Shown here one piece after another: positions 1,381-27,016 of a DNA stretch of 64,000 bases. Every line of letters starts with the position of its first letter. Position 1 is the stretch's first letter. Position numbers and translations under genes: made by a program. Source of the DNA: an uncultured Gammaproteobacteria bacterium (lineage in GTDB: Bacteria; Patescibacteriota; Microgenomatia; Levybacterales; UBA12049); assembly GCA_964507055.1 (NCBI GenBank), contig CAZDOJ010000001.1, positions 13,210 through 77,209 of the forward strand, given 5' to 3'. The notes below the pieces were generated by a model. The model was not told the origin of the DNA, did not search any database, and saw only the letters and a program-made list of their open reading frames with translations.

Positions 1381-3600
1381 CTATTGTCCTGGTTGTGTGG
1401 ATATTTCTCGGATGAAAAGATTGTAATCAATTTGGTTAACATCATTATCATCGTTTAAGTCAGACTTTACACTCTTTTCCGCCAATGCACAGTTTGCAGC
1501 GGCGGTAAGATCACTGTAGCAATCAAGGATTGAATTGTAGTCAAGGATATCAAGTCTGTTGTCATTATTTACATCTCCTGCGACAAGCGGGATTGATGTG
1601 ATCTTATTCTTTTGTCCCGAATTAATTTTCTGAACACCATTCACTTGTCGTCTCAAATATGTGTCTGCCTTCACCTTCATTGTGTATTGACCACTTGGGA
1701 AACCACTTTGGATAGGGATATCTCCGAGGTAATTTCCAGTGCTTGGATTATAGGTAATTGTTCCTGTTCCACTTGCGATGAGTTGATTATTTAGTGTAAA
1801 CACCTGGACGTCAGCTCCGATTGTTGGATGCTTCGGATCTTTGTTACTCAAGGAGTAGTCATTTGGATTTGTGTTGTCTCCACGATTACCAATCCCATCA
1901 AGGAAGACCGTTACATCAATTGTCGTTGTGTTCTCAGGAAGGTTTGGATCGTATGTATTTGGATTTCTTGGATCACTATCGATATGGCAAACTGGATCTC
2001 CGCCGTCAATTAATCCATCACCATTATTATCTTTAGAATCACCGCATGTATTTCCACCGCCTCGTTCACCATCTTTCTTCGGATCATATGAATTAGGATT
2101 CTTTGGATTGCCATCCGTGTGACATGTTGAATCAGCCGCATCTTTGAATCCATTATTGTCATTATCAATCCCGTCTGAGCATCGTGCCTTATCTGTATTT
2201 CCGAAGTGCTTATCATTTGATTGACTTGCGTTGGTTACATTAATTGCATATCCTGAAGGATCTGTTGGCAATGTTTGTGTCCAACCTGATTTCATTTGTT
2301 GTGACAACTTGTATGAACCGTCACAAAGTCCTGTAAATGTGTAATTTCCATTTGTGTCAGTTGTTGCAGTTTTTGTTCCTGCACTTGAAGTTGCTTGAAT
2401 AGTCCAACCTGAAAGTTTCGGCTCATTTGTATCAAATGCACCATTCATATTTGCATCGCTGAAGACAAACCCACCAAGCAATCCTTTACCGATTAACTTA
2501 GAGATTTCCTGATACACACCATCCAATTCACTTGGAGCAGGGAAGTAGAATTTACCACCTGTGAGCTCTGCAACTTGTCTCATGTAATCAGCAGAGAAGA
2601 ATTTGCTATCACCTTGTGCTGCCTCATCACCCAAACCGATTGTAAAGAAAACTGTCTTATTTGCAGCAAAGCCACTCTTTACGGCAGCCAATGCCTTTGC
2701 TTCACCTTCAGCAGCGGGTACTTGTTGGTTATTACCAATAATGTAATTTGCTTGACCATCTGTAAGCATGACTACAACTTTTTTGACCCCTGGTCGGCCT
2801 TTGGATGTAATTTCTTTATTTGCTTCAGCGATACCACATTCCTGACATGTATTTCCGCTTGCTGTCAGTGCATCGACTTTCGTTTTAATAGAATTGTAAT
2901 CAGTGGTAAGTGTGCTACTTAATGTACTATTTGTTGAGAAAGAAACCATACCTATTCTGGTTGTTTCTTCTTGGCCCGCTACAACATCAATAAAATTCTT
3001 TGCAGCATTCTTTGCTTGAACTAATTTATTTGCTTGTCCCATCGAACCTGATCTATCAATAACGAGGATGACGTCTGTCGTGACATTACCACACGTTGCC
3101 GGAACATCTGTTGAAACCTGTGCTGGCTGAGCAAGAGCATTTTGGCATGTTCGTGCTTCATAGGTTGCGGTTCGTTGTTCTGTTTGTGTAGGAGCGTCGG
3201 TATAATCAACTGTAAATGTCACTGTTCCAGCTGCGACAGAAGTTTTTCCTGAGGGGATAGTACTAGTTTTCGTTTCTTCCGGAGCAATTGTCCCTAGTGA
3301 AACTGTTTTTCCAGTGACTTCATCTTTGGCAGTAACTTCGATAGAACGTGATTTGTCGACATTAGTGTATGAAACGCCAACTTCAACTTCACCAGCAGCT
3401 GTACACTGTGATTGGCTTGATTGGAGAACAACTTGTCCTGAAAGTTCTTGATTTGCTGAAGGTTGTACAACTTGTGCTCGTCCACGAAGTTCTTGTTGCT
3501 CACGGAGATTATTTACAATGAGTGGGAGAACAATCATCGCGTATGCGATTCCCACAACCGTCAATGAAATAACTTTCCTTCTGTCTTTGAATCTTCTCAT
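1381..3600 (-). CDS. large surface protein: N-terminal TM anchor, vWA domain, SdrD-B-like domain, Cys/Asp Ca-binding repeats, dockerin-like C-terminus
   Basis: MIDAS motif DVILVIDRSGSM. Repeats CSDGIDNDNNGFKD and CGDSKDNNGDGLIDGGDPVCH. C-terminal paired DxNxDxxxDxxDY repeats (GDVNNDNRLDILDYNSIL, DLNDDNDVNQIDYNLFI). Confidence 0.75.
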   Translation of the reverse strand: MRRFKDRRKVISLTVVGIAYAMIVLPLIVNNLREQQELRGRAQVVQPSANQELSGQVVLQSSQSQCTAAGEVEVGVSYTNVDKSRSIEVTAKDEVTGKTVSLGTIAPEETKTSTIPSGKTSVAAGTVTFTVDYTDAPTQTEQRTATYEARTCQNALAQPAQVSTDVPATCGNVTTDVILVIDRSGSMGQANKLVQAKNAAKNFIDVVAGQEETTRIGMVSFSTNSTLSSTLTTDYNSIKTKVDALTASGNTCQECGIAEANKEITSKGRPGVKKVVVMLTDGQANYIIGNNQQVPAAEGEAKALAAVKSGFAANKTVFFTIGLGDEAAQGDSKFFSADYMRQVAELTGGKFYFPAPSELDGVYQEISKLIGKGLLGGFVFSDANMNGAFDTNEPKLSGWTIQATSSAGTKTATTDTNGNYTFTGLCDGSYKLSQQMKSGWTQTLPTDPSGYAINVTNASQSNDKHFGNTDKARCSDGIDNDNNGFKDAADSTCHTDGNPKNPNSYDPKKDGERGGGNTCGDSKDNNGDGLIDGGDPVCHIDSDPRNPNTYDPNLPENTTTIDVTVFLDGIGNRGDNTNPNDYSLSNKDPKHPTIGADVQVFTLNNQLIASGTGTITYNPSTGNYLGDIPIQSGFPSGQYTMKVKADTYLRRQVNGVQKINSGQKNKITSIPLVAGDVNNDNRLDILDYNSILDCYSDLTAAANCALAEKSVKSDLNDDNDVNQIDYNLFIREISTQPGQ

Positions 3601-3603
3601 ATG

Positions 3604-4812
3604 CTAGTCACCGTTCTGAACGGAGAGTTCTCGTAAGAATAAATTGTAGTCAAAACTATTCACGACACCATTATCATCGATATCAACATTTTCAACTGGT
3701 GTATGTGCTTTACATTCTTCCGTATTAAATTTAGAATTTGCATCTGCGATAGGGAGGGGATTTAATTCTCCATATCCACAATCAAGCATTGCATTGTAAT
3801 CGATGACATTTAAGAAATTATCTCCATTAGAATCACCCGCGACGAGTTGTGTGTCTGGTAATGGATTCTCTTGATCTTTCTGAATCTGCTGAATGCCTGG
3901 AACAAGTCTTCGAAGGTATCGATCGGTTTTGACCTTAATATTGTAGTTGCCAGATTCGATATCTCCCAATCCCATCTTGCCGACAAATGTTCCGGATTCA
4001 CTATCATAGGTAACTGGAGCTGAAGCACTCGCGACAATTTGATTGTCTGTATTAAAAACTTCCACAAGAAGGTTTCTTTGTGGATGGACAGGATTCTTAT
4101 TACTCAAACTATTTCCTGTAGGATTTGGATTATCTCCAGCTGCTCCAACTCCATGCATAAAGAGTGTAAATGTCACAGATGTTCCTGTTATTGTTGGCTG
4201 TGGTACGAGTGTTGCACTTGGTGTGCCAGTTGCTTCACCATTAATGACAATTGTTGCAGGAGTTGTTGAAGAAAGAACATTTTGACTTGCTTGATCGTTT
4301 GCTCCAGAGGAAAGTGCTTGTGACATACTGCCGAACGTAACTGTTGTAGGAGTTCCATTGGTTGGACCAACGGCTGTGAAGTTCACTGTCGCAACTTTTG
4401 TCTTTGTTTGCACTGCTTTTGTAGGATCAGATCCTATACTTACGGATTGGGCAATAGCTTCTGCCGTTGTTACTGGACCTTCAACACTTGAAAAGACTGT
4501 TGAATTTAATGTAATTGGATTTGCAGTGTTGAGTTGGACTTTGGTTGGATCATAGGTGATTTGGTATTTAACGAAGGTAATGAGGTTTGTTCCCGGATCA
4601 ACAGTAATATCGAGGGCGATAGGATCTCCAACATTTTTCGTCAATGGAGCTGCTGTCGTTGATGAAGGCTCAAAAGAAAGCGTTGTAGAGCCTGCTGCTT
4701 TTTGTCGTATGTCTTGTCTTTGAGAAAGTATGGAGATCGTTAATGGGATAGTAAGAAGTACTGCAACAGCAGCGACAATTAGAAAAATTTTCTTCTTATT
4801 TGAAGTGTTCAT
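3604..4812 (-). CDS. surface protein with cohesin-like N-domain and dockerin-like C-terminus
   Basis: N-terminal TM or signal segment (IFLIVAAVAVLLTIPLTISIL). Cohesin-like segment (PIALDITVDPGTNLITFVKYQITYDPTKVQL). The C-terminal ~170-aa module is homologous to that of 1381-3600 and includes GDSNGDNFLNVIDYNAML and DIDDNGVVNSFDYNLFL. Confidence 0.7.
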   Translation of the reverse strand: MNTSNKKKIFLIVAAVAVLLTIPLTISILSQRQDIRQKAAGSTTLSFEPSSTTAAPLTKNVGDPIALDITVDPGTNLITFVKYQITYDPTKVQLNTANPITLNSTVFSSVEGPVTTAEAIAQSVSIGSDPTKAVQTKTKVATVNFTAVGPTNGTPTTVTFGSMSQALSSGANDQASQNVLSSTTPATIVINGEATGTPSATLVPQPTITGTSVTFTLFMHGVGAAGDNPNPTGNSLSNKNPVHPQRNLLVEVFNTDNQIVASASAPVTYDSESGTFVGKMGLGDIESGNYNIKVKTDRYLRRLVPGIQQIQKDQENPLPDTQLVAGDSNGDNFLNVIDYNAMLDCGYGELNPLPIADANSKFNTEECKAHTPVENVDIDDNGVVNSFDYNLFLRELSVQNGD

Positions 4813-4952: not shown

Positions 4953-5522
4953 ATGATTTTATCTGACGGAGATATCAAAAAAGCCCTCGCCAGCAAGCGA
5001 ATTGTTATCAAGCCAGCTCCCAATTTGGATGAGCAATTAGGTTCGTGTTCTATTGATTTACGCCTTGGAAAAGAATTCCGAGTCTTTGATCACAGCAAAC
5101 ATCCATTCATCGATCCTTCCAAAAAAGACTACAGTAATGAGATAACCAAAGTTGTAAAAGTAAATAAAGATGGAGACTTTATCATGCAGCCTGGCGAATT
5201 TGTTCTTGCTGTAACTTTGGAAAATGTGAAGATTCCATCGGATATGATGGGACGACTTGAGGGACGATCTTCACTTGGTCGTTTGGGATTGGTAGTTCAT
5301 TCAACAGCATCTACTTTTGATGCAGGTTGGGACGGAAAACCAGTACTCGAATTAGGTAATCTTGGGCGAATGGCAATTAAATTAACCCCTGGGATGAGAA
5401 TTTGTGCAATGGTTTTTGAAGAACTGACATCACCAGCTGAAACTCCATATACCAGTAAGAAATTTGCTAAGTACAAATTTCAGCAAGCACCGGAAGAGAG
5501 TAGAATCCACGAGGATAAATAA
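4953..5522 (+). CDS. dcd: dCTP deaminase
   Basis: MILSDGDI...SIDLRLG...GRLEGRSSLGRLGLVVH is the typical Dcd signature. The ATG at 4953 is preferred over the GTG at 4950 because TGtTACACT (4937-4945) lies 7 nt upstream. Confidence 0.85.
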   Translation: MILSDGDIKKALASKRIVIKPAPNLDEQLGSCSIDLRLGKEFRVFDHSKHPFIDPSKKDYSNEITKVVKVNKDGDFIMQPGEFVLAVTLENVKIPSDMMGRLEGRSSLGRLGLVVHSTASTFDAGWDGKPVLELGNLGRMAIKLTPGMRICAMVFEELTSPAETPYTSKKFAKYKFQQAPEESRIHEDK

Positions 5523-5565
5523 AGCTTTGTCATTCCGAGTTTATTTCGGAATCTTCGTAAAGTAG

Positions 5566-5595
5566 ATCCTGAAGCAAGTTCAGGATGACATTTTT
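5566..5595 (+). terminator. putative intrinsic terminator after dcd
   Basis: 8-bp stem ATCCTGAA/TTCAGGAT (5566-5573 and 5579-5586) with a 5-nt loop. TTTTT follows at 5591-5595. Confidence 0.45.
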
Positions 5596-5600
5596 ACTAT

Positions 5601-6281
5601 ATGTCATACAATATCTCACTTGATTTAGACTTCAAAAGAAATCCACATAAAGGGAGATATTTTGCCTTAGAAGGAATTGATGGAAGTGGCAAAACTTACC
5701 AGACAGATGCACTGACTCAGTATTTTCAGAAGAAAGGTAAAGAAGTAATCGTTGCCCGAGAGCCTCGAAAAGAACACGGCGTCCTGCATGAAGTTATTGC
5801 AAACGTGTTACTCGGAAAAATCAAAATGTCTCCATTGGCTTTGCAATACTTATTTACTGCAGATCGTATCCTCAACCAAGAAGAAACAATCATTCCCGCA
5901 CTTAAGGATGGAAAGATCGTCATTGCGGATAGATCATTTTGGTCAATTATCCCGTACGCTTTATCGGATTTGAAATTGGATTTTACGACAGACGCAACCA
6001 ATTTTATGTTGATGGGTCAGGGGATTTTATCGTCGTATCACCAGACAGTCATTCCGGATAAGATTTTATTTTTGGACATTTCAGTTGATACTGCAATGGA
6101 ACGATTGTCCGGCAAATCCGAAGCAAAGGAAATTTATGAGAAGCGAAGTAAAATCGAAAAACATCACAAAGGATATCATTGGCTTCTCGAACATTATGCT
6201 GATCAATTCTCAATAATCGATGGAGAATGTTCACAAAAAGAAGTAACTGAAAAGATTGTTAAGGAATTACGCAACCAATGA
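5601..6281 (+). CDS. tmk: thymidylate kinase (bacterial type)
   Basis: P-loop FALEGIDGSGKTYQ, followed by VAREP and DRSFWS as in dTMP kinases. Confidence 0.8.
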   Translation: MSYNISLDLDFKRNPHKGRYFALEGIDGSGKTYQTDALTQYFQKKGKEVIVAREPRKEHGVLHEVIANVLLGKIKMSPLALQYLFTADRILNQEETIIPALKDGKIVIADRSFWSIIPYALSDLKLDFTTDATNFMLMGQGILSSYHQTVIPDKILFLDISVDTAMERLSGKSEAKEIYEKRSKIEKHHKGYHWLLEHYADQFSIIDGECSQKEVTEKIVKELRNQ

Positions 6282-11593: not shown

Positions 11594-12544
11594 TTATGAA
11601 GTGCAGATATTGGCTACGATATTTTCAAGAATCTTATCTAAATTGCCTCCGTTGATACTATTAAAGTAATGTGTCTCAGTTGGTGCTGAAGCAACTTCTT
11701 TCATTAATGTTTCAAGATATGGGAAAAGCACTGCATCACTTGGATAACTTGGACTGTAAATATTTACTGAATAGATCCCAACTCCCATTTGCTTGATATC
11801 ACTTGCTATATTTGTCGGAACTCTTGGATCCTGTTCTCTTGCAAAACATCGCTGCTGTGGTGCAGTATTCGGATCAGGTGTTTCAACATAACAGTTTCTT
11901 GGTGGAGGAACTTCTGGTACACCGTCTGTCATAAGAATTAAATTCCACTTATATCCAGGATAAGCTTTTTCATCAAGTTGTTCTGCAATTTTATCCTTGA
12001 CCATAGCCATACCATCTCTTGTTCTCGTGTAACCATCAGGTTTAAGGCCATTAATCGCTTTATCTAATTCAGGTTTTGCGTCTTTGTAATAATTGATTGG
12101 CACTTCTTCTTCCACATCTTTACTAAAAGTATACAAACCTACAACTGATTTCCCTCCAAGGTTTTCGAGAAAATATTTAACGGCTTTTTTCGTATTATCC
12201 ATTTTCCCAGCAAACTTCATTGAACCAGAGGTATCGACTAAAAAGATCATCGCGGAATTCTGTCCACAATTACTTACATTAAATGTTTTTAGCTGAAGAT
12301 TATTATCTGCTGAAGTCTGTGCGTCAGTTGGCATAACTATTCTTTGCTTTGGATAATCTTCTGGATTGAAGTGAGGTTCAAGTGTTGGTGGTCCACCTGG
12401 ACCGTTTGGGTCAACTGGCGTTCCGCCGCCTGAGGCTACAAAAGCTCCCGCGATGACCAGTCCCATGATAAAAAGAATGGAAATAGCATTTGTGCGTGCT
12501 TCTCTATATGGTAGGGGAGGTCTACTTCCTTTGATTTTGCTCAT
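11594..12544 (-). CDS. membrane-anchored vWA domain protein
   Basis: N-terminal TM segment (AISILFIMGLVIAGAFVA) and MIDAS motif MIFLVDTSGSM. Confidence 0.75.
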   Translation of the reverse strand: MSKIKGSRPPLPYREARTNAISILFIMGLVIAGAFVASGGGTPVDPNGPGGPPTLEPHFNPEDYPKQRIVMPTDAQTSADNNLQLKTFNVSNCGQNSAMIFLVDTSGSMKFAGKMDNTKKAVKYFLENLGGKSVVGLYTFSKDVEEEVPINYYKDAKPELDKAINGLKPDGYTRTRDGMAMVKDKIAEQLDEKAYPGYKWNLILMTDGVPEVPPPRNCYVETPDPNTAPQQRCFAREQDPRVPTNIASDIKQMGVGIYSVNIYSPSYPSDAVLFPYLETLMKEVASAPTETHYFNSINGGNLDKILENIVANICTS

Positions 12545-12555
12545 AAGAATAACAG

Positions 12556-13407
12556 CTAGAGCTGGCTTCCACCGCTGCTTCCACTTCCGCCGCCACCGCC
12601 GCCTTTATTGTGGGCGAGAACGCCATCTGCGTAGAAGTTATTATGTCCACTTACTTTCTTGAGATTATATGCCTGTACTGGACCAGGGAAATAATCCATC
12701 CTAGTAATCGCGACATATTTTCCTGAATCTTTCAATACTTTGTCTCCGACTTTAAGAGGTTTTACTTTCAATACAGCATTCTCTTGAGCTGTTTTCTCTG
12801 GAGAAATAGATTTCCAACCTTCTGATGTGTACAGTGGATGTTCATTCGTTACACCAAGAACAGTTCCATCAGCGAGTTTGACATTATAATGATGATCGCG
12901 AAGTGGGGCATCCATTTCTTGTACTTTTACTGCAACTTGCTTCTTGCCATCATACCCGATGACACTATCTCCAACTTTTACATCTTCGATATTCTTTTCA
13001 GAATAATCAGCCATTAAGATCTTTGTTCCAGCTACGAAGCATGTGCTTCCACCGCCGCCACCGCCGCCACCACCTGTTGCAGGAGGCTGAGGAGTCGGAG
13101 TTGGAGTTGGGGTTGGTGAAGGAGTCGGTGTTGGTGTAAGTGTGATGCCAGGAAAATCTTCAAGCTGGAGATTTGATTTTCCGTCAGTATCGTCACCACG
13201 TTGGATAATAACTGGTTGACTATCATCTGGGGAAGCAAACTTAGGAGCAGAATTGCCGAGCATCATAACGCCGCCGCCAATGACAATTCCTAGGAAAATG
13301 ATTGCATAGATGGTACCAGCACCTACAGCGCCACGAGATTTTTTAACCTTTAATAAAAGTGCGTTTTTAGGTTTTCGAGCAGTAGTAGTTTTCTTTTTAG
13401 CGGGCAT
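12556..13407 (-). CDS. membrane-anchored protein with PT linker and Hint (bacterial intein-like) domain flanked by poly-Gly
   Basis: TM segment (IYAIIFLGIVIGGGVMML), linker TPTPTPSPTPTPTPTPQPP, then G9-ST-CFVAGTKIL...TNEHPLYT...NFYADGVLAHN-K-G6. Confidence 0.8.
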   Translation of the reverse strand: MPAKKKTTTARKPKNALLLKVKKSRGAVGAGTIYAIIFLGIVIGGGVMMLGNSAPKFASPDDSQPVIIQRGDDTDGKSNLQLEDFPGITLTPTPTPSPTPTPTPTPQPPATGGGGGGGGGSTCFVAGTKILMADYSEKNIEDVKVGDSVIGYDGKKQVAVKVQEMDAPLRDHHYNVKLADGTVLGVTNEHPLYTSEGWKSISPEKTAQENAVLKVKPLKVGDKVLKDSGKYVAITRMDYFPGPVQAYNLKKVSGHNNFYADGVLAHNKGGGGGGSGSSGGSQL

Positions 13408-14982: not shown

Positions 14983-15534
14983 ATGGATCCAGTCTTAACT
15001 ACAACAAAGCAAAAACTCCAAAAGGTTCTCGATGTGCTTCGAGATGATATCGCAACAATTCGTACTGGTCGTGCAGTCCCTTCATTGGTTGAAAACATTA
15101 CTGTTATGGCATATGGTGGTTCAGCCAAACTCAAAGTTATGGAGCTTGCAACAATCGGAACTCCTGACAATCAAACTATTGTTATCACACCATTTGACGC
15201 ATCAACGATTCACGAAATTCAAAAGGGGATTGAGCAGGCAAATGTGGGCTACAACCCAATCATTGATGGCATGTTACTTCGTATTTCTATCCCACCACTT
15301 TCTTTGGAACGTCGACAAGAACTCATTAAAGCAATGAAAGGAAAACTCGAAAACGGTAAAATTATGGTTCGACAAGTTCGTCACGAAATGATTGAAGATA
15401 TGAAGAAGGATTATGAAGGCCGCGAGGACGATATCAAACGATTAGAAAAAGAAGTACAAAAAGCTGTTGATGAAACTATCGAAACTATTGAAGATTGGGG
15501 CAAACAAAAAGAACAAGAACTTCTCCAAATTTAA
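14983..15534 (+). CDS. frr: ribosome recycling factor
   Basis: 183 aa with LRDDIATIRTGRAVPSLVENI...LSLERRQELIK. Sits in the conserved rpsB-tsf-frr order. Confidence 0.9.
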   Translation: MDPVLTTTKQKLQKVLDVLRDDIATIRTGRAVPSLVENITVMAYGGSAKLKVMELATIGTPDNQTIVITPFDASTIHEIQKGIEQANVGYNPIIDGMLLRISIPPLSLERRQELIKAMKGKLENGKIMVRQVRHEMIEDMKKDYEGREDDIKRLEKEVQKAVDETIETIEDWGKQKEQELLQI

Positions 15535-16838
15535 TCTTCTGTAGGTTCTTTTGCAAACATATCTAAATAAGCAATTGCAGGATCCATGCCTTCTGTTACT
15601 GGTAAAGCTTCAGGTTTCGTTACCCCGAATAGGTTGTTTAGTATATCTTCTATTTTTCCAATAGTAGCTAAGTCTTTAGGTCTTTCCCTCGAAGCATCTA
15701 TACTAACATTGAGCAGCTGACTCAAAGCAAATTGTGCTTTCAGAGCTTCTTCATCAGAACGGCTACTACTTTCTTTAAATTGCTCAAGGTCCTTCATCGC
15801 ATCTTGTACAGTAGCTATTTCCTCACGCCAGGTCTCAAAATAACGTGCTTCCATTAAATGAGTTCCAAAATAGTTTGCTTCATTCTTATTACCTGGAGTG
15901 TCATCTAAACTAAACGTATAATATTTGGTGCCACCTTTTTGAGGCAACTTCTCCCAACTTGCTGATGCACCTCTTGCGTCATTATAACTTGCATAGATGA
16001 ACTCATTTTTAATCTGAATCATTGCGTCATCGTATGAAGTGCCATCTGCCATTACTTCTTCTATCCTTGTACGGAACTTTATATTTGCAGCTCCAACTGC
16101 TTCTTTCTTTTCTTTCCATCCTGGATTGGCATCTGCATATGCGTGCTCTTGTGTTCGCACATCTTCTCCAAAGCGTTCAAATATTTTGGGTAGGTCTTCA
16201 ATGGTTACTTCCTCAGATGTAAATCCATCAAGAATCTTATCAATATTTGGAGCATAGGTATATTCAGGATATGTTTCAAGTGCCTCAAGTTGATCTTCAG
16301 CTTCAGTCTTTTTTACATCTTTAAGAGTTTCATCTCCATCCAACTCTTGTGCCGCTTTCGTTGCTGCTTCAGGATTAAGGAGAGTATCTTTTAAAACAAG
16401 TAATGCTGCTTTATTTGTCTCAGCTATTGCACGTGCCTCTTCATCCTTGGTCTGCATTTGTTGATCAAATCTCGCGATTCGTTGATCCAAGTATGTTTCT
16501 ATTTTGTCTTTGTGAGGTGGGGAAATTTCATGGCCAGCATAGGCATCTAACAAGATTTCTCGTATATCTACCAATCTGCTTTCTTGACGAAGAAACTCCT
16601 TTCTACCAATGACAACATCTTTCTTTTGCTCATCAAGATCTCCAATTTCCGCTTTCACAAGATCGAAAGCATCAATTGCAGTTACTTTATAGCTATCAGT
16701 GAGCTTGGCACTAAAAAGGCCCGCTTGATTATCAAACTTATCCGATCGGAATGATAATCCAGAGTGGTCATATTCCGGGCTTGGTTTTACTTTAGCTTCT
16801 TTTTCGAGAACAATGCGTTCTCCACCAGCTTCACTCAT
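15531..16838 (-). CDS. hypothetical acidic protein
   Basis: 435-aa ORF with no recognisable motif and no island-type tail (ends AKEPTED). Confidence 0.6.
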   Translation of the reverse strand: MSEAGGERIVLEKEAKVKPSPEYDHSGLSFRSDKFDNQAGLFSAKLTDSYKVTAIDAFDLVKAEIGDLDEQKKDVVIGRKEFLRQESRLVDIREILLDAYAGHEISPPHKDKIETYLDQRIARFDQQMQTKDEEARAIAETNKAALLVLKDTLLNPEAATKAAQELDGDETLKDVKKTEAEDQLEALETYPEYTYAPNIDKILDGFTSEEVTIEDLPKIFERFGEDVRTQEHAYADANPGWKEKKEAVGAANIKFRTRIEEVMADGTSYDDAMIQIKNEFIYASYNDARGASASWEKLPQKGGTKYYTFSLDDTPGNKNEANYFGTHLMEARYFETWREEIATVQDAMKDLEQFKESSSRSDEEALKAQFALSQLLNVSIDASRERPKDLATIGKIEDILNNLFGVTKPEALPVTEGMDPAIAYLDMFAKEPTED

Positions 16839-18122: not shown

Positions 18123-18178
18123 ATCTCCTGGGATCCCCATCAATATTGACTTTGTTTTTCCTATCTGTAAGACTAGAT

Positions 18179-18919
18179 ATGAGGGAATTTATGGTTAATG
18201 AAGAGTTAGTTGCTAATATACGCAATCGATTTCAACAAGGTGAGAGACGAAATGAAATTCGCATGTCTTTGATGGAAGAGGGATGGGAAGAAGCTGATGT
18301 AGATAATGCAATTTCTTTTATTCAAAATGAGGCTTTAAAGCAGCTGCCAGGGATTTCTCATATATATAAATTTATTGATCATCTCGATAGTAAAACTTCA
18401 CATTCGTCACCGAAAGTTATAGCTGCAGTTTTAGCAGGATGTTTCGGAGTTTTGCTCATCATCTTTGGAGGACTTTATTATTTCTTGGATCCTCTAGGTT
18501 TTGGTGGTGTTGAACGAGATAAACAAAGGGAAGCAGATATTGTGAAGATCCGTTCTGCGATTGATAAGTATCAAGTGGATAAGAGTGTTTATCCATCTAC
18601 GCTGCAAGAATTACTGCCAAAATATTTACAAGCAATTCCACAGGATCCAGAGACAGGCGGACAATATAGTTACCAAACAATGGACAATAATTATAACTAT
18701 GAACTTTGTGTGAATTTCGAATCAAAAGCACCTCAATGCGTTTCATCATCGATTGATACCTCAGATATTCCTATGGTGATTGCGACGCCAACTCCAGCAG
18801 CGACAGATACCGTAACTTTGCCCGTAGAACCAGATGCATCTGCACCTGCTGAATTAGAAGAAGCACCAATTGTCACAATTGTCCCTGAAGTAACTGGAGA
18901 GGGAAGTTTGGCATTATGA
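18179..18919 (+). CDS. membrane protein with pilin/GspG-like extracellular domain
   Basis: TM segment VIAAVLAGCFGVLLIIFGGLYYFL, then IRSAIDKYQVDKSVYPSTLQELLPKYLQAIPQDPETG (pseudopilin-like). The start may instead be the track position 18146. Confidence 0.5.
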   Translation: MREFMVNEELVANIRNRFQQGERRNEIRMSLMEEGWEEADVDNAISFIQNEALKQLPGISHIYKFIDHLDSKTSHSSPKVIAAVLAGCFGVLLIIFGGLYYFLDPLGFGGVERDKQREADIVKIRSAIDKYQVDKSVYPSTLQELLPKYLQAIPQDPETGGQYSYQTMDNNYNYELCVNFESKAPQCVSSSIDTSDIPMVIATPTPAATDTVTLPVEPDASAPAELEEAPIVTIVPEVTGEGSLAL

Positions 18920-24912: not shown

Positions 24913-24991
24913 CCCATTTTTCGAACTTTGGTGTCAAGTGTTTCGCTCTATATTTGACGCTTCACAAAACTTCTTCTATAATCGCAAGATT

Positions 24992-27016
24992 ATGGAAAAG
25001 GATAGATTGTTTTCAAACAGAGATAAGGCTTCTCGAGAAATGTACAAGCAAACACGTAAAGCGATAGGTGGACCTACGCGTATTGATAGTTTATTCGTTG
25101 CGACTACTTTGACTGGAGAGCCCGTCAATTATAGAGAAGATTTTACTCAACCATTGCTTGAAAGTGAGTATCGTAAGGCAGGATTAATCATGCATACGGT
25201 GGAGCATGCAAGAAGTAATCCTCTTACATTGGTCCCTGAGTTAGTGAAGACGAAAGCGTTTGCCATTGATGCAGTAATAATTAATGGTGAAATGCATAAA
25301 GATAATGGCACACATATGGTTGCTGTTGTTCCAACGGATACTGAAGAAGATGGTACAAAGCTTACTGAATATCATGTTATTGATTCTCTCACCGAGGGTG
25401 GTGTTACTTCATATAAGTCAGAAATAGAAGCCTATGAACATATCCAATCACTCTTTGTACCGGAATCTGTCCTCATATCTCTTCACCCGAGTGAAAAAGA
25501 AGTTGAACGAAGAACACATCATGGAGATGAAATTATTACGGAAATGCTTCAGGTTGGGGATAATGCCTTCATAGAGGTTCAGGTTGCAAATGATGATCCT
25601 AGATTTTTTGGAAAGAAAGAATCGGAAGTAACTACTGCTGAAACGCTCGAGCAAGACAAAAAAGCATTGCAAGAAGTGATGCATGCACTTATTGACGATT
25701 TCCATAGCGAAGATCCAAGTCGTAAGCAGTATCTGTATACAGAATTCGCAACCATAGCAGCTCGACACGATATGCGTTACCCTTTGCTCTCTGAAATAGC
25801 GATGGATCATCTCGAGCCAGGTGCTACTCCTAGTTCCGAAGATCTTCAAAATGTACATAAGACTATCGAAACACAGCCAACAGATAATAGTATCGTGGAT
25901 ACACAAATTCCAGCATCAGTACTTCGTTCTGCCAAGCGATTGGTCGCTCATTATGCACAAGAACAAGCAAGTGACCCCTCGTTACGCGTTGTAGATATTG
26001 ATGCTCAAGTATCCTTTATTGATGAACAGGTTGCTCTTTATAACAAATCGCTTTACGATTTAGGTGATCTTTCAGAATATAACCCACGAGAATTTACTGG
26101 AGATGAATTACTAAAAGGAACCAGAGCTGCGTATGAAGAGGCACGAAGAAAGGGCTTGGATGTAATGACACCTGATTCTGAGAATGTCCGAAGTGATGGT
26201 AAGGTCGCGGTAACCTATGGATTCACTACATTTGAAAAAACAGGGAAATGGCGTAAAAAGCAGCAAACCTCGTGGAGATCTGCAATGGTGTTGGTTCTGG
26301 ATACAGAACAAAGAAAGCCTATTATATATGGTGCTCAGGATGGATCTTCTCATGAAATTATGATTGATGGTGTAGGTACGTCTGTTGAAAATTTGACTGT
26401 TGATAGAGCGGTTGCAGTTCATACCAATAATTTAAATATAAAAGAGGTTGAGGTCGAGGGTGGTGCTTCTTTACATTTTGATAGTGGACATCTAGCATAT
26501 GCGACTGTTCGTCCAGAAGCGACAGTTACTTTTGAAAACTCAGTTGTGAATATGGTAAGTTCAGACAAGAATACTCGAACGTATGCACATTATAGTCAGA
26601 TCGGAAGAGTGCAGGTAATAAATGGACTTTTTGATGTAGGTGGTACAGATATTGGCCATTTATATGCGAGCGATGCTAGAGTAAGCGTGTATGGTGACAT
26701 AGTAAAGCTTACTGCTGATAATAAAAATACAGCATTTACACAACAACAAGGAGTGTGCGGAGAATATTATGGACTGAATCAAGCACACATAGTGCACTTT
26801 GCTTCATATCCAGAGAAAGTGACTGCATCTCCTAATACAAGATATTTCGTTGATGACGAAACTGTCCAAATAGATCGTGATGGAAATAGATGTGTATATT
26901 CTAAGGCTTATGATCAATTTCAATATGACAGGGAACACACCATTGATGCGATGCATACGCTAGTAGACTGGTCAGGGCAAAATGATGATGTTGAAGGTCC
27001 CCGAAGATCACTGTGA
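24992..27016 (+). CDS. tail-family protein T1 (function unknown)
   Basis: The ATG at 24992 lies 9 nt after TATAAT (24977-24982); the track GTG at 24938 is less likely. The C-terminus is LVDWSGQNDDVEGPRRSL, followed by a TGA stop. Confidence 0.85.
   Translation: MEKDRLFSNRDKASREMYKQTRKAIGGPTRIDSLFVATTLTGEPVNYREDFTQPLLESEYRKAGLIMHTVEHARSNPLTLVPELVKTKAFAIDAVIINGEMHKDNGTHMVAVVPTDTEEDGTKLTEYHVIDSLTEGGVTSYKSEIEAYEHIQSLFVPESVLISLHPSEKEVERRTHHGDEIITEMLQVGDNAFIEVQVANDDPRFFGKKESEVTTAETLEQDKKALQEVMHALIDDFHSEDPSRKQYLYTEFATIAARHDMRYPLLSEIAMDHLEPGATPSSEDLQNVHKTIETQPTDNSIVDTQIPASVLRSAKRLVAHYAQEQASDPSLRVVDIDAQVSFIDEQVALYNKSLYDLGDLSEYNPREFTGDELLKGTRAAYEEARRKGLDVMTPDSENVRSDGKVAVTYGFTTFEKTGKWRKKQQTSWRSAMVLVLDTEQRKPIIYGAQDGSSHEIMIDGVGTSVENLTVDRAVAVHTNNLNIKEVEVEGGASLHFDSGHLAYATVRPEATVTFENSVVNMVSSDKNTRTYAHYSQIGRVQVINGLFDVGGTDIGHLYASDARVSVYGDIVKLTADNKNTAFTQQQGVCGEYYGLNQAHIVHFASYPEKVTASPNTRYFVDDETVQIDRDGNRCVYSKAYDQFQYDREHTIDAMHTLVDWSGQNDDVEGPRRSL

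Follow-up and report, generated by a model that had tools for sequence, protein, structure and literature searches.

A type-A bacterial intein-like Hint domain present in zero, one or two copies in a small membrane-anchored protein of Levybacteria-like Patescibacteria

What does a Hint domain do close to the C-terminus of a small membrane protein that has orthologues with none, one or two of them? The question is raised by a 64,000-nucleotide stretch of contig CAZDOJ010000001.1 (assembly GCA_964507055.1, positions 13,210 to 77,209; hereafter the window) from a member of the Patescibacteriota (Microgenomatia, Levybacterales), in which a minus-strand open reading frame (ORF) of 283 aa plus stop carries a Hint domain in what we call the stalk protein. 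It is more than 20 years since type-A bacterial intein-like (BIL) domains were described, and their biological role is, to our knowledge, still unsettled. A sequence-only reading of the window had proposed that this is a stand-alone Hint domain on a membrane-anchored stalk and that it could release the stalk by cleavage or transfer it covalently in a Hedgehog-like manner. We found that the domain is almost certainly type-A BIL-like and that it is an optional insertion at a single site of a conserved host protein. Its probable role, which we put forward with modest confidence, is to excise itself after export and to rejoin the stalk to the C-terminal tail.

A Hint domain with the features of type-A BILs

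The layout of the stalk protein is given in Table 1; an identical protein (P0001) is encoded on 11 contigs, one of 1.3 Mb. In translation, the order of its domains and the extent of the Hint domain (12607-13041, aa 123-267) are residue for residue those of the sequence-only reading, the coordinates of which were right and need only the correction that the gene lies on the minus strand. The Lys/Arg-rich aa 1-29, together with the positive-inside rule, point to an N-in/C-out topology. The Hint domain lies on the outer, extracytoplasmic side of the membrane anchor, which bears out the membrane-anchored setting proposed earlier, and is followed by K268, six Gly residues, SGSSGGSQL, and the stop codon. 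In an AlphaFold2 (AF2) model made with 44 homologues as input, aa 121-270 have a predicted local distance difference test score (pLDDT) of 90-99. The region from aa 51 to 120 is of low confidence and apparently disordered, the juxtamembrane motif having a pLDDT of 44-51. A class III prepilin signal at “RG/AVGAGT” was considered and rejected: a conserved pattern of Glu or Phe is lacking, and even the Asp present in its relatives is missing from the window protein.

Profile and structure searches identify the domain far beyond chance, and its fold is the Hint fold. Two Pfam models matched above their cutoffs, Hom_end_hint (E 4.4e-11; 43.6 bits versus 32.1) and PT-HINT (E 1.6e-7; 32.1 bits versus a gathering cutoff of 27.7; aa 138-268). 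Below their cutoffs were Hint (Hog, PF01079; 28.6 versus 29.7 bits), Vint (PF14623; 25.3 bits, close to the 27 required), Hint_2 (PF13403; 22.5 versus 28.4 bits, over the N-terminal 58 aa only), AXH (30.2 versus 33 bits), and Intein_splicing, while the NCBIfam search gave only partial matches of the intein-N/C type. Of the profiles that the sequence-only reading had suggested for a check, PT-HINT thus recognizes the domain, and Hint and Hint_2 fall short. With phmmer, the first match in the PDB was Tetrahymena BIL2 (E 6.5e-7, aa 123-266), and the family profile matched BIL2 (E 3e-13) and 2lwy, the BIL of Clostridium thermocellum (E 6.6e-11). Foldseek against the PDB gave a similar picture, with BUBL1 BIL2 (6tmm/6y75) at the top (TM-score 0.84-0.87, root-mean-square deviation 1.8-1.9 Å, 28% identity, E 7e-14), 2lwy next (TM-score 0.85, 27% identity, E 6e-11), mini-inteins at lower ranks, and Hedgehog (1at0, 6tyy) far down.

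C123, T187, H190, H266, N267, and K268 are among the residues that are invariant in all 44 sequences of an alignment of homologues with the same architecture (48-79% identity to the window protein), and G269 is kept in more than 90% of them. Both the PDB sequence match and the profile match align H190 with His69 of BIL2, the key catalytic residue according to the authors of that structure (PMC8616854). The predicted catalytic set is intact and conserved, in keeping with the sequence-only reading, which had described a Hint/BIL-type domain with intact Cys1, T-x-x-H, and H-N and a non-nucleophilic Lys at +1. Type-A BILs have a C-terminal His-Asn and no +1 nucleophile (PMC4031507); they occur in variable regions of non-conserved, often extracellular proteins and contain no endonuclease (PMC7765530). 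The window domain shows every one of the sequence-level features, namely the Hint fold, Cys1, T-x-x-H, His-Asn, and the absence of Cys/Ser/Thr at +1, and it has the location too, in a Gly-rich tail outside a transmembrane (TM) anchor and in 0, 1, or 2 copies among orthologues. Since none of the 44 homologues departs from Cys1, the block B T..H, the terminal H-N, or the +1 Lys, we assign it to the type-A BIL-like domains with little room for doubt.

The PT-HINT score above its gathering cutoff apart, the marks of related classes were not found. Canonical inteins are distinguished from it by the +1 Lys (44/44) and by a site in a low-complexity poly-Gly tail, and polymorphic toxins by the 16-aa Gly/Ser tail after the Hint domain and by the next gene, which encodes a TM-anchored VWA protein. 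Hog domains differ in that the Pfam score is below the cutoff and no adduct-recognition region follows the Hint domain; type-B BILs (Hint_2) in that the score is again below the cutoff and the block G His-Asn is present; and VWA-Vint proteins in that Vint is below the cutoff and VWA is a separate, downstream gene. The flanks are poly-Gly and not the ubiquitin-like domains of BUBL proteins.

Two readings that these searches bring up can be weighed at once. Some Hint-fold domains, AXH for example, are non-catalytic, and the sub-threshold AXH match would suit a catalytically dead fold that serves as a structural or binding head on the stalk. This is very unlikely, given that Cys1, T..H, and H-N are invariant in the family and near-universal in the wider clade, and that the closest structures are those of active BILs and inteins. 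The PT-HINT match above the gathering threshold would suit a decayed polymorphic toxin, that is, a pretoxin-HINT protein that has lost its C-terminal toxin domain. However, the short-tail architecture is kept in about 48 homologues with conserved synteny, toxin or immunity genes are absent (VWA being the next gene), and there is no large N-terminal delivery domain, so that a toxin ancestry of this kind is extremely improbable.

Zero, one or two Hint domains at a single site

Contrary to the description of the Hint domain as stand-alone, it is an insertion in a conserved host protein, which in the same genomic slot occurs also without a Hint domain or with two. Scanning the GTDB species genomes revealed five (L036, L037, L038, L039, and L041) with a Hint-less gene in the same slot, in which the stalk-VWA pair lies between rpsB and glyA. 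All five genes retain the K-rich tail, TM helix, juxtamembrane motif, Pro/Thr-rich (PT) linker, poly-Gly, and Gly-rich tail, as exemplified by L036 (...PPSNGGGGGGGGGGSHAPQGGGSGGGGGSTGGSGL), and a tblastn search found the Hint-coding sequence nowhere in these five loci. A sixth Hint-less form, P0076, is encoded just after rpsB on a short contig (L122) and belongs to the window protein's own sub-clade; it was the only protein recovered by a homologue search with the N-terminal 92 aa. The metagenome scan kept the best 80 loci, all of them Hint-containing, and is therefore silent on how frequent Hint-less forms are.

P0076, which reads ...PPPSTGGGGG-NNNP-GGGGGPSGGSAL, is best compared with its closest Hint-containing relative, P0007 (...PPPSTGGGGGSS[C...HN]KGGGGPSGGSAL). 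At the DNA level (L122 versus L123), the two loci are colinear on either side of the insertion, an agreement that extends past the stop codon and takes in the beginning of the VWA gene, and 444 nt of P0007, encoding Ser-Ser, the Hint domain, and Lys, correspond to 12 nt in P0076; the colinearity was read from the printed sequences, as the alignment tool misplaced the gap. The tails of the two proteins are alike, GGGG(G)PSGGSAL, and tails of the ...SGGSAL kind are present in both Hint-containing and Hint-less orthologues. Four orthologues (P0002, P0006, P0009, and P0013) carry two Hint domains at the same site, with either HN-KGS-C or a short stretch of Gly between them. Copy number is zero, one, or two at exactly one site, with flanks that are colinear on both sides. 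It follows from this series and from the Hint-less comparison that the +1 Lys is part of the inserted unit and that the tail is part of the host; the unit is [S/T]-Hint-Lys, with T or S at -1 in the majority of stalk-family members.

At the junction, the Hint-less proteins have the short linkers NNNP, SHAPQ, SHAPA, SHAPGP, NNAPDK, and NQQPQT between two poly-Gly tracts. These similar linkers may have been left behind by the S...H-N-K ends when a Hint domain was deleted, or they may represent an ancient alternative allele. The imperfect 28-nt direct repeats of Gly codons on either side of the Hint-coding segment are a plausible route to its in-frame deletion or duplication; the short linkers are not predicted by simple repeat recombination.

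In neighbor-joining trees of the VWA protein and of serine hydroxymethyltransferase (SHMT), the Hint-less taxa are interspersed with Hint-containing ones in two separate clades, a pattern that implies two or three events at the minimum. Between pairs of sequences, divergence in the Hint domain correlates with divergence in the N-terminal module of the host (Mantel r 0.44, with 0 of 2000 permutations as high). Paired copies within two-Hint proteins are only 52-62% identical, and the copies of P0006 and P0009 are orthologous by position, on which grounds a recent tandem duplication was rejected. Taken together, co-divergence with the host, divergence between copies, and positional orthology indicate an association of long standing and mainly vertical descent, in which the Hint domain was lost repeatedly, and not one of recent homing.

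These data bear on a further reading, that of a canonical mobile mini-intein with standard four-step splicing, which is suggested by intein blocks A, B, and G and by a single site that is occupied in some orthologues and empty in others. Yet the +1 residue is an invariant Lys instead of Cys/Ser/Thr, a homing endonuclease is absent, the host site is a low-complexity tail and not a conserved active site, and the Hint domain co-diverges with its host. The probability that we attach to such an intein is close to nil.

As a separate observation on the tails, most Gly-rich tails of the stalk family end in small-small-[L/M/I/R/K], for example SAL, SQL, SAR, TAM, GAL, or DAM (in the window, 12559-12573 on the minus strand). 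This pattern suggests that the extreme C-terminus may be recognized by something.

A candidate course of processing after export

Of the ways in which such a domain could act, we lean toward self-excision after export, with rejoining of the stalk and the tail. The host is a small membrane protein, of probable N-in/C-out topology, of Levybacteria-like Patescibacteria (candidate phyla radiation, CPR), the outer part of which is a predicted disordered stalk composed of the juxtamembrane motif, the PT linker, and the Gly-rich tail, with a type-A BIL and its own +1 Lys inserted in the tail. After Sec export, an N-to-S acyl shift at Thr122-Cys123 would produce a thioester, and cyclization of Asn267 would cut the Asn267-Lys268 bond. 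An amine of Lys268 would then attack the thioester. This would be the alpha-amine that the cut has freed, in line with the route proposed for type-A BILs, or possibly the epsilon-amine, by analogy with the isopeptide that BIL2 makes. In this way the Gly tail would be joined to the stalk again and the Hint domain set free, with products of simple N- or C-terminal cleavage likely to form as well. The mature protein would resemble the Hint-less orthologues.

Self-removal with rejoining is favored over an essential Hedgehog-like transfer because orthologues without the Hint domain are intact and retain the tail, and also because the C-terminal His-Asn-Lys is conserved despite a tiny C-extein. If the host protein needs the Hint domain removed, as we propose, purifying selection on the catalytic residues would be accounted for. 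Splicing by type-A BILs comprises thioester formation, Asn cyclization, and attack of the freed amine, although cleavage products dominate (PMC4031507), and the product of BIL2, to which the domain is closest among solved structures, is a Lys isopeptide (PMC8616854).

Several points weigh against this course. Activity, the type of product (spliced or cleaved), and the acceptor amine are all three inferred. Cleavage dominates over splicing in published assays of type-A BILs (PMC4031507). Where splicing would leave S-T-K, Hint-less orthologues carry NNNP, SHAPQ, or NNAPDK. Hint-less forms are viable, so that the Hint domain could equally have an extra function of its own. Finally, the tail-end motif is weak in the Hint-less forms, only three of six having a small-small-L/M end.

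The same assays (PMC4031507) would be matched by cleavage only, whereby one or both junctions are cut with no ligation, the Hint domain (145 aa, soluble) and a Gly peptide of 16 aa are shed, and the stalk is truncated; the shed Hint domain or peptide could be the functional product, or the cleavage a timer or regulator. Two-Hint proteins would then shed two copies, and the Hint domain is at least as well conserved as its host, slightly better in fact than the N-terminal module (59% versus 53% mean identity). We nevertheless consider cleavage only to be unlikely. That Hint-containing and Hint-less orthologues, P0007 and P0076 for example, have the tail in common suggests that it belongs to the mature host protein and has to be rejoined, and on the Hint domain itself there is no evident binding or enzymatic feature besides the autoprocessing residues. 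Nor would cleavage release the stalk, as the sequence-only reading had supposed: the stalk is anchored in the membrane, and it is the Hint domain with the tail that would leave.

A Hedgehog- or BUBL-like trans-ligation would have an external amine or hydroxyl resolve the Thr122-Cys123 thioester and so tether the membrane stalk covalently, the candidate acceptors being a cell-wall amine, the VWA partner, Lys268 of another copy, or a host-cell surface protein. BIL2 indeed passes its N-extein to Lys side chains as isopeptides (PMC8616854). The invariant +1 Lys moves together with the Hint domain, both flanks of which are flexible poly-Gly, and the conserved partner gene encodes a VWA adhesin that has the juxtamembrane motif in common with the stalk protein. 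On the other hand, Hint-less orthologues retain the stalk-VWA pair, which therefore works without Hint chemistry, and the conserved terminal His-Asn would not be needed for a pure N-terminal transfer. The adduct-recognition region after the Hint domain is absent, and distant Hint relatives have no VWA neighbor. We hold trans-ligation to be improbable, and a Hedgehog-like transfer that is essential to the function of the protein is less favored than self-removal with rejoining.

Comparison with known Hint systems

Among known systems, the type-A BIL of C. thermocellum (2lwy), the second-best fold match, shares the Hint fold, Cys1, block B TxxH, and C-terminal His-Asn with the window domain, as well as a length of about 140 aa, the lack of a +1 nucleophile and of an endonuclease, and a place in variable regions of extracytoplasmic proteins. 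The C. thermocellum BIL tested by Dassa et al. in 2004 reportedly has Ala at +1. The window case differs in its host, a tiny CPR membrane stalk protein and not a large secreted protein, in the poly-Gly that borders the domain at either end, in a +1 residue that is invariably Lys, and in having orthologues with no or two Hint domains on record for the same site. BUBL1 BIL2 (6y75/6tmm) is the best match in both sequence and fold, with the catalytic His aligned (H190/H69); it is cytoplasmic and its ubiquitin-like flanks are conjugated to Lys (PMC8616854), whereas the flanks here are Gly-rich, of low complexity, and outside the cell.

Pretoxin-HINT domains (PF07591) have in common with the window domain the Pfam match above threshold and an extracytoplasmic setting of autoproteolysis; here, by contrast, there is a 16-aa tail, with no toxin domain, immunity gene, or delivery domain. 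With Hedgehog/Hog, the fold is the same and a like N-terminal thioester step would be expected, but the C-terminal His-Asn is present and the sterol-recognition region is absent. Eukaryotic VWA-Vint proteins, to which the near-threshold Vint score (25.3 versus 27 bits) points, have VWA and Hint fused in one intracellular protein with VWA upstream (PMC2362128), while the window has two membrane proteins, the Hint gene is upstream, and the Hint domain is dispensable for the gene pair.

No papers on Hint domains of CPR bacteria came up in a literature search, and the domain class and its chemistry are already known (PMC4031507, PMC7765530, PMC8616854). What is new is a well-defined natural series of zero, one, and two copies in a conserved CPR surface gene pair, in which the +1 Lys is clearly part of the mobile or variable unit. 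A short conserved cassette of stalk and VWA adhesin, with orthologues that differ essentially in BIL number at one site, amounts to a natural experiment, and the locus makes it possible to test with small constructs native BIL splicing versus cleavage, the role of the +1 Lys, and the mature product against the Hint-less form. Should the Hint domain merely excise itself, this would be an ordinary though well-documented case. The locus is real, clean, and experimentally tractable and is not categorically new.

The wider clade of HN-K Hint domains

The locus also flags a very large clade of HN-K Hint domains in bacteria, DPANN archaea, and protist polyubiquitin genes. An exhaustive profile search, counted in representatives of 50%-identity clusters, gave 22,779 at E≤1e-3, 5,505 at E≤1e-10, and 634 at E≤1e-30; members include Bacteroidota, Nanoarchaeota/Woesearchaeota, and a foraminifer. 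Among 315 full-length domains from 216 domain-containing proteins, Cys1 is present in 311, HN in 299, the +1 Lys in 238, and Gly at +2 in 163. Two to seven Hint copies are found in 92 of the 216 proteins, the commonest inter-domain linkers being K, KC, KGG, KG, and KGS.

The size of the “C...HN-K” clade (634 clusters at E<1e-30), with its frequent tandem arrays and linkers of 1 to 4 residues, invites the speculation that the +1 Lys is a built-in acyl acceptor and that the whole clade consists of extracellular protein ligases independent of ATP and sortase. If so, the thioester would be resolved to a Lys (iso)peptide, in cis (lariat-free splicing) or in trans (covalent polymerization or tethering), and in a CPR episymbiont lineage the stalk would be tethered to the VWA partner, the cell wall, or the host surface. 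We regard this as decidedly doubtful.

Double poly-Gly flanks are not a clade-wide trait: among 99 isolated non-stalk domains, GGG is found upstream of 9 and downstream of 22, the two showing no association (Fisher p 0.41), and such flanks are a property of the stalk host protein. No VWA gene adjoins the distant Hint relatives examined (P0057, P0066, and P0053). In P0066 the Hint domain is fused to FecR, and the surrounding genes are unrelated; P0053, on an unidentified metagenome contig, adjoins a PKD protein and has close Hint relatives in Woesearchaeota metagenome-assembled genomes (MAGs). P0057 (Paceibacterota; L008, 4001-5113), of the HN-K type with a Cys-rich C-terminus, is encoded directly upstream of type IV pilus genes (PilB-like T2SSE, PilC-like T2SSF, and an N_methyl pilin).

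Some members stand out by their architecture. P0166, a polyubiquitin-like protein of the foraminifer Nonionella stella (EukProt), has BILs between ubiquitin repeats (...LHLVLRLRQG/CFIEGT...ILVHN/SMQIFVKTLTGK) and is, judged by this arrangement, a BUBL-type gene outside ciliates within the same clade as defined by a hidden Markov model (HMM). Large proteins with four to seven head-to-tail Hint domains, linked by K, KC, KGG, or nothing, are represented by P0077, P0079, P0085, and P0102 and by locus L032 (387-4400), and one Thermoplasmata MAG contig has seven Hint copies.

The VWA partner gene and neighboring genes

Proteins closely homologous to the Hint protein are encoded in MAGs of “Candidatus Levybacteria” and other Patescibacteria. 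In nearly every locus with downstream sequence, the stalk gene and then the VWA gene lie between rpsB-tsf-frr and glyA-DHFR-thyA; the exception is L007, in which a second stalk paralogue, not a VWA gene, follows. In this soil metagenome contig, the Hint-bearing stalk gene is at 5001-5777 and the stalk-family paralogue at 5857-6168, where it is cut by the contig end.

The stalk and VWA proteins both have a K-rich tail, a TM helix, and the motif Q-x-[IV]-[IV]-x(10-12)-NLQL-x-x-F, which reads SQPVIIQRGDDTDGKSNLQLEDF in the stalk protein and KQRIVMPTDAQTSADNNLQLKTF in the VWA protein of the window and is kept in both families across loci, just after the TM helices. An HMM made from the stalk motif was run on every ORF of the window and of ten loci; its best non-self matches were the VWA neighbors in four independent loci (E 1.4e-4, 0.012, 0.022, and 0.03). 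The shared motif could be a signal for pairing, sorting, or processing.

Table 1. Features of the stalk gene, its VWA neighbor, the Hint-less orthologues and other ORFs of the window (coordinates are those of the window unless a locus is named)
Feature	Coordinates	Strand	Basis or remark
Whole ORF, type II membrane “stalk” protein with Hint insertion	12556..13407	-	Translation
Lys/Arg-rich cytoplasmic N-terminus, aa 1-29	13321..13407	-	Sequence reading
Transmembrane helix, aa 30-50	13258..13320	-	AF2 helix; hydrophobic GTIYAIIFLGIVIGGGVMMLG
Juxtamembrane motif, aa 51-92, Q64-x-V66 ... N79-L80-Q81-L82-x-x-F85-P-G	13132..13257	-	Invariant alignment columns
Pro/Thr-rich linker, aa 89-111	13075..13143	-	Sequence and homologue alignment
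N-flank G9-S-T, aa 112-122; -1 residue Thr122	13042..13074	-	Sequence
Hint domain, aa 123-267 (145 aa), type-A BIL-like	12607..13041	-	Pfam, PDB, AF2, Foldseek
Cys123 codon, block A nucleophile (Cys1), start of CFVAGTKIL	13039..13041	-	Invariant 44/44; 311/315 in wider clade
Block B T187-N-E-H190, within TNEHPLYT	12838..12849	-	T187 and H190 invariant
Block G His-Asn, H266-N267, end of GVLAHN	12607..12612	-	Invariant; HN in 299/315 wider-clade domains
Lys268, +1 residue	12604..12606	-	Invariant; K in 238/315 wider-clade domains; not in Hint-less orthologues
Gly/Ser-rich C-terminal tail GGGGGGSGSSGGSQL, aa 269-283	12559..12603	-	Sequence; homologous tails in Hint-containing and Hint-less orthologues
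Gly-codon direct repeat, downstream of Hint-coding segment	12576..12603	.	28 nt, 82% identical to 13044-13071
Gly-codon direct repeat, upstream of Hint-coding segment	13044..13071	.	Partner of the 12576-12603 copy
TM-anchored VWA protein gene, MIDAS DTSGS, 11 nt after stalk gene	11594..12544	-	Pfam VWA E 4.7e-18
Juxtamembrane motif of VWA protein, KQRIVMPTDAQTSADNNLQLKTFN, homologous to stalk motif	12278..12349	-	Shared motif; stalk-motif HMM
Hint-less genes	L036 3441-3860, L037 2306-2722, L038 3468-3851, L039 3492-3887, L041 3429-3932, L122 1194-1589		
ORFs without Pfam match	3604-4812, 15531-16838	-	Pfam E≤1e-5
ORFs without Pfam match	18146-18919, 24938-27016, 29136-32129	+	Pfam E≤1e-5

Elsewhere in the window, two further minus-strand genes encode predicted surface proteins, a 739-aa protein with VWA and SdrD_B domains (1381-3600) and a 248-aa SdrD_B/CarboxypepD_reg-like protein (582-1328); the NLQL motif is absent from both. 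For a further five ORFs, 257-997 aa long, Pfam gave no match at the cutoff listed in Table 1.

Four of the loci, L011, L016, L035, and L038, come from GenBank MAG records titled “uncultured Gammaproteobacteria bacterium,” one of which is a 1.6-Mb chromosome. They have a Levybacteria-type locus with 62-89% protein identity and identical synteny, and the taxonomic labels of these records look wrong.

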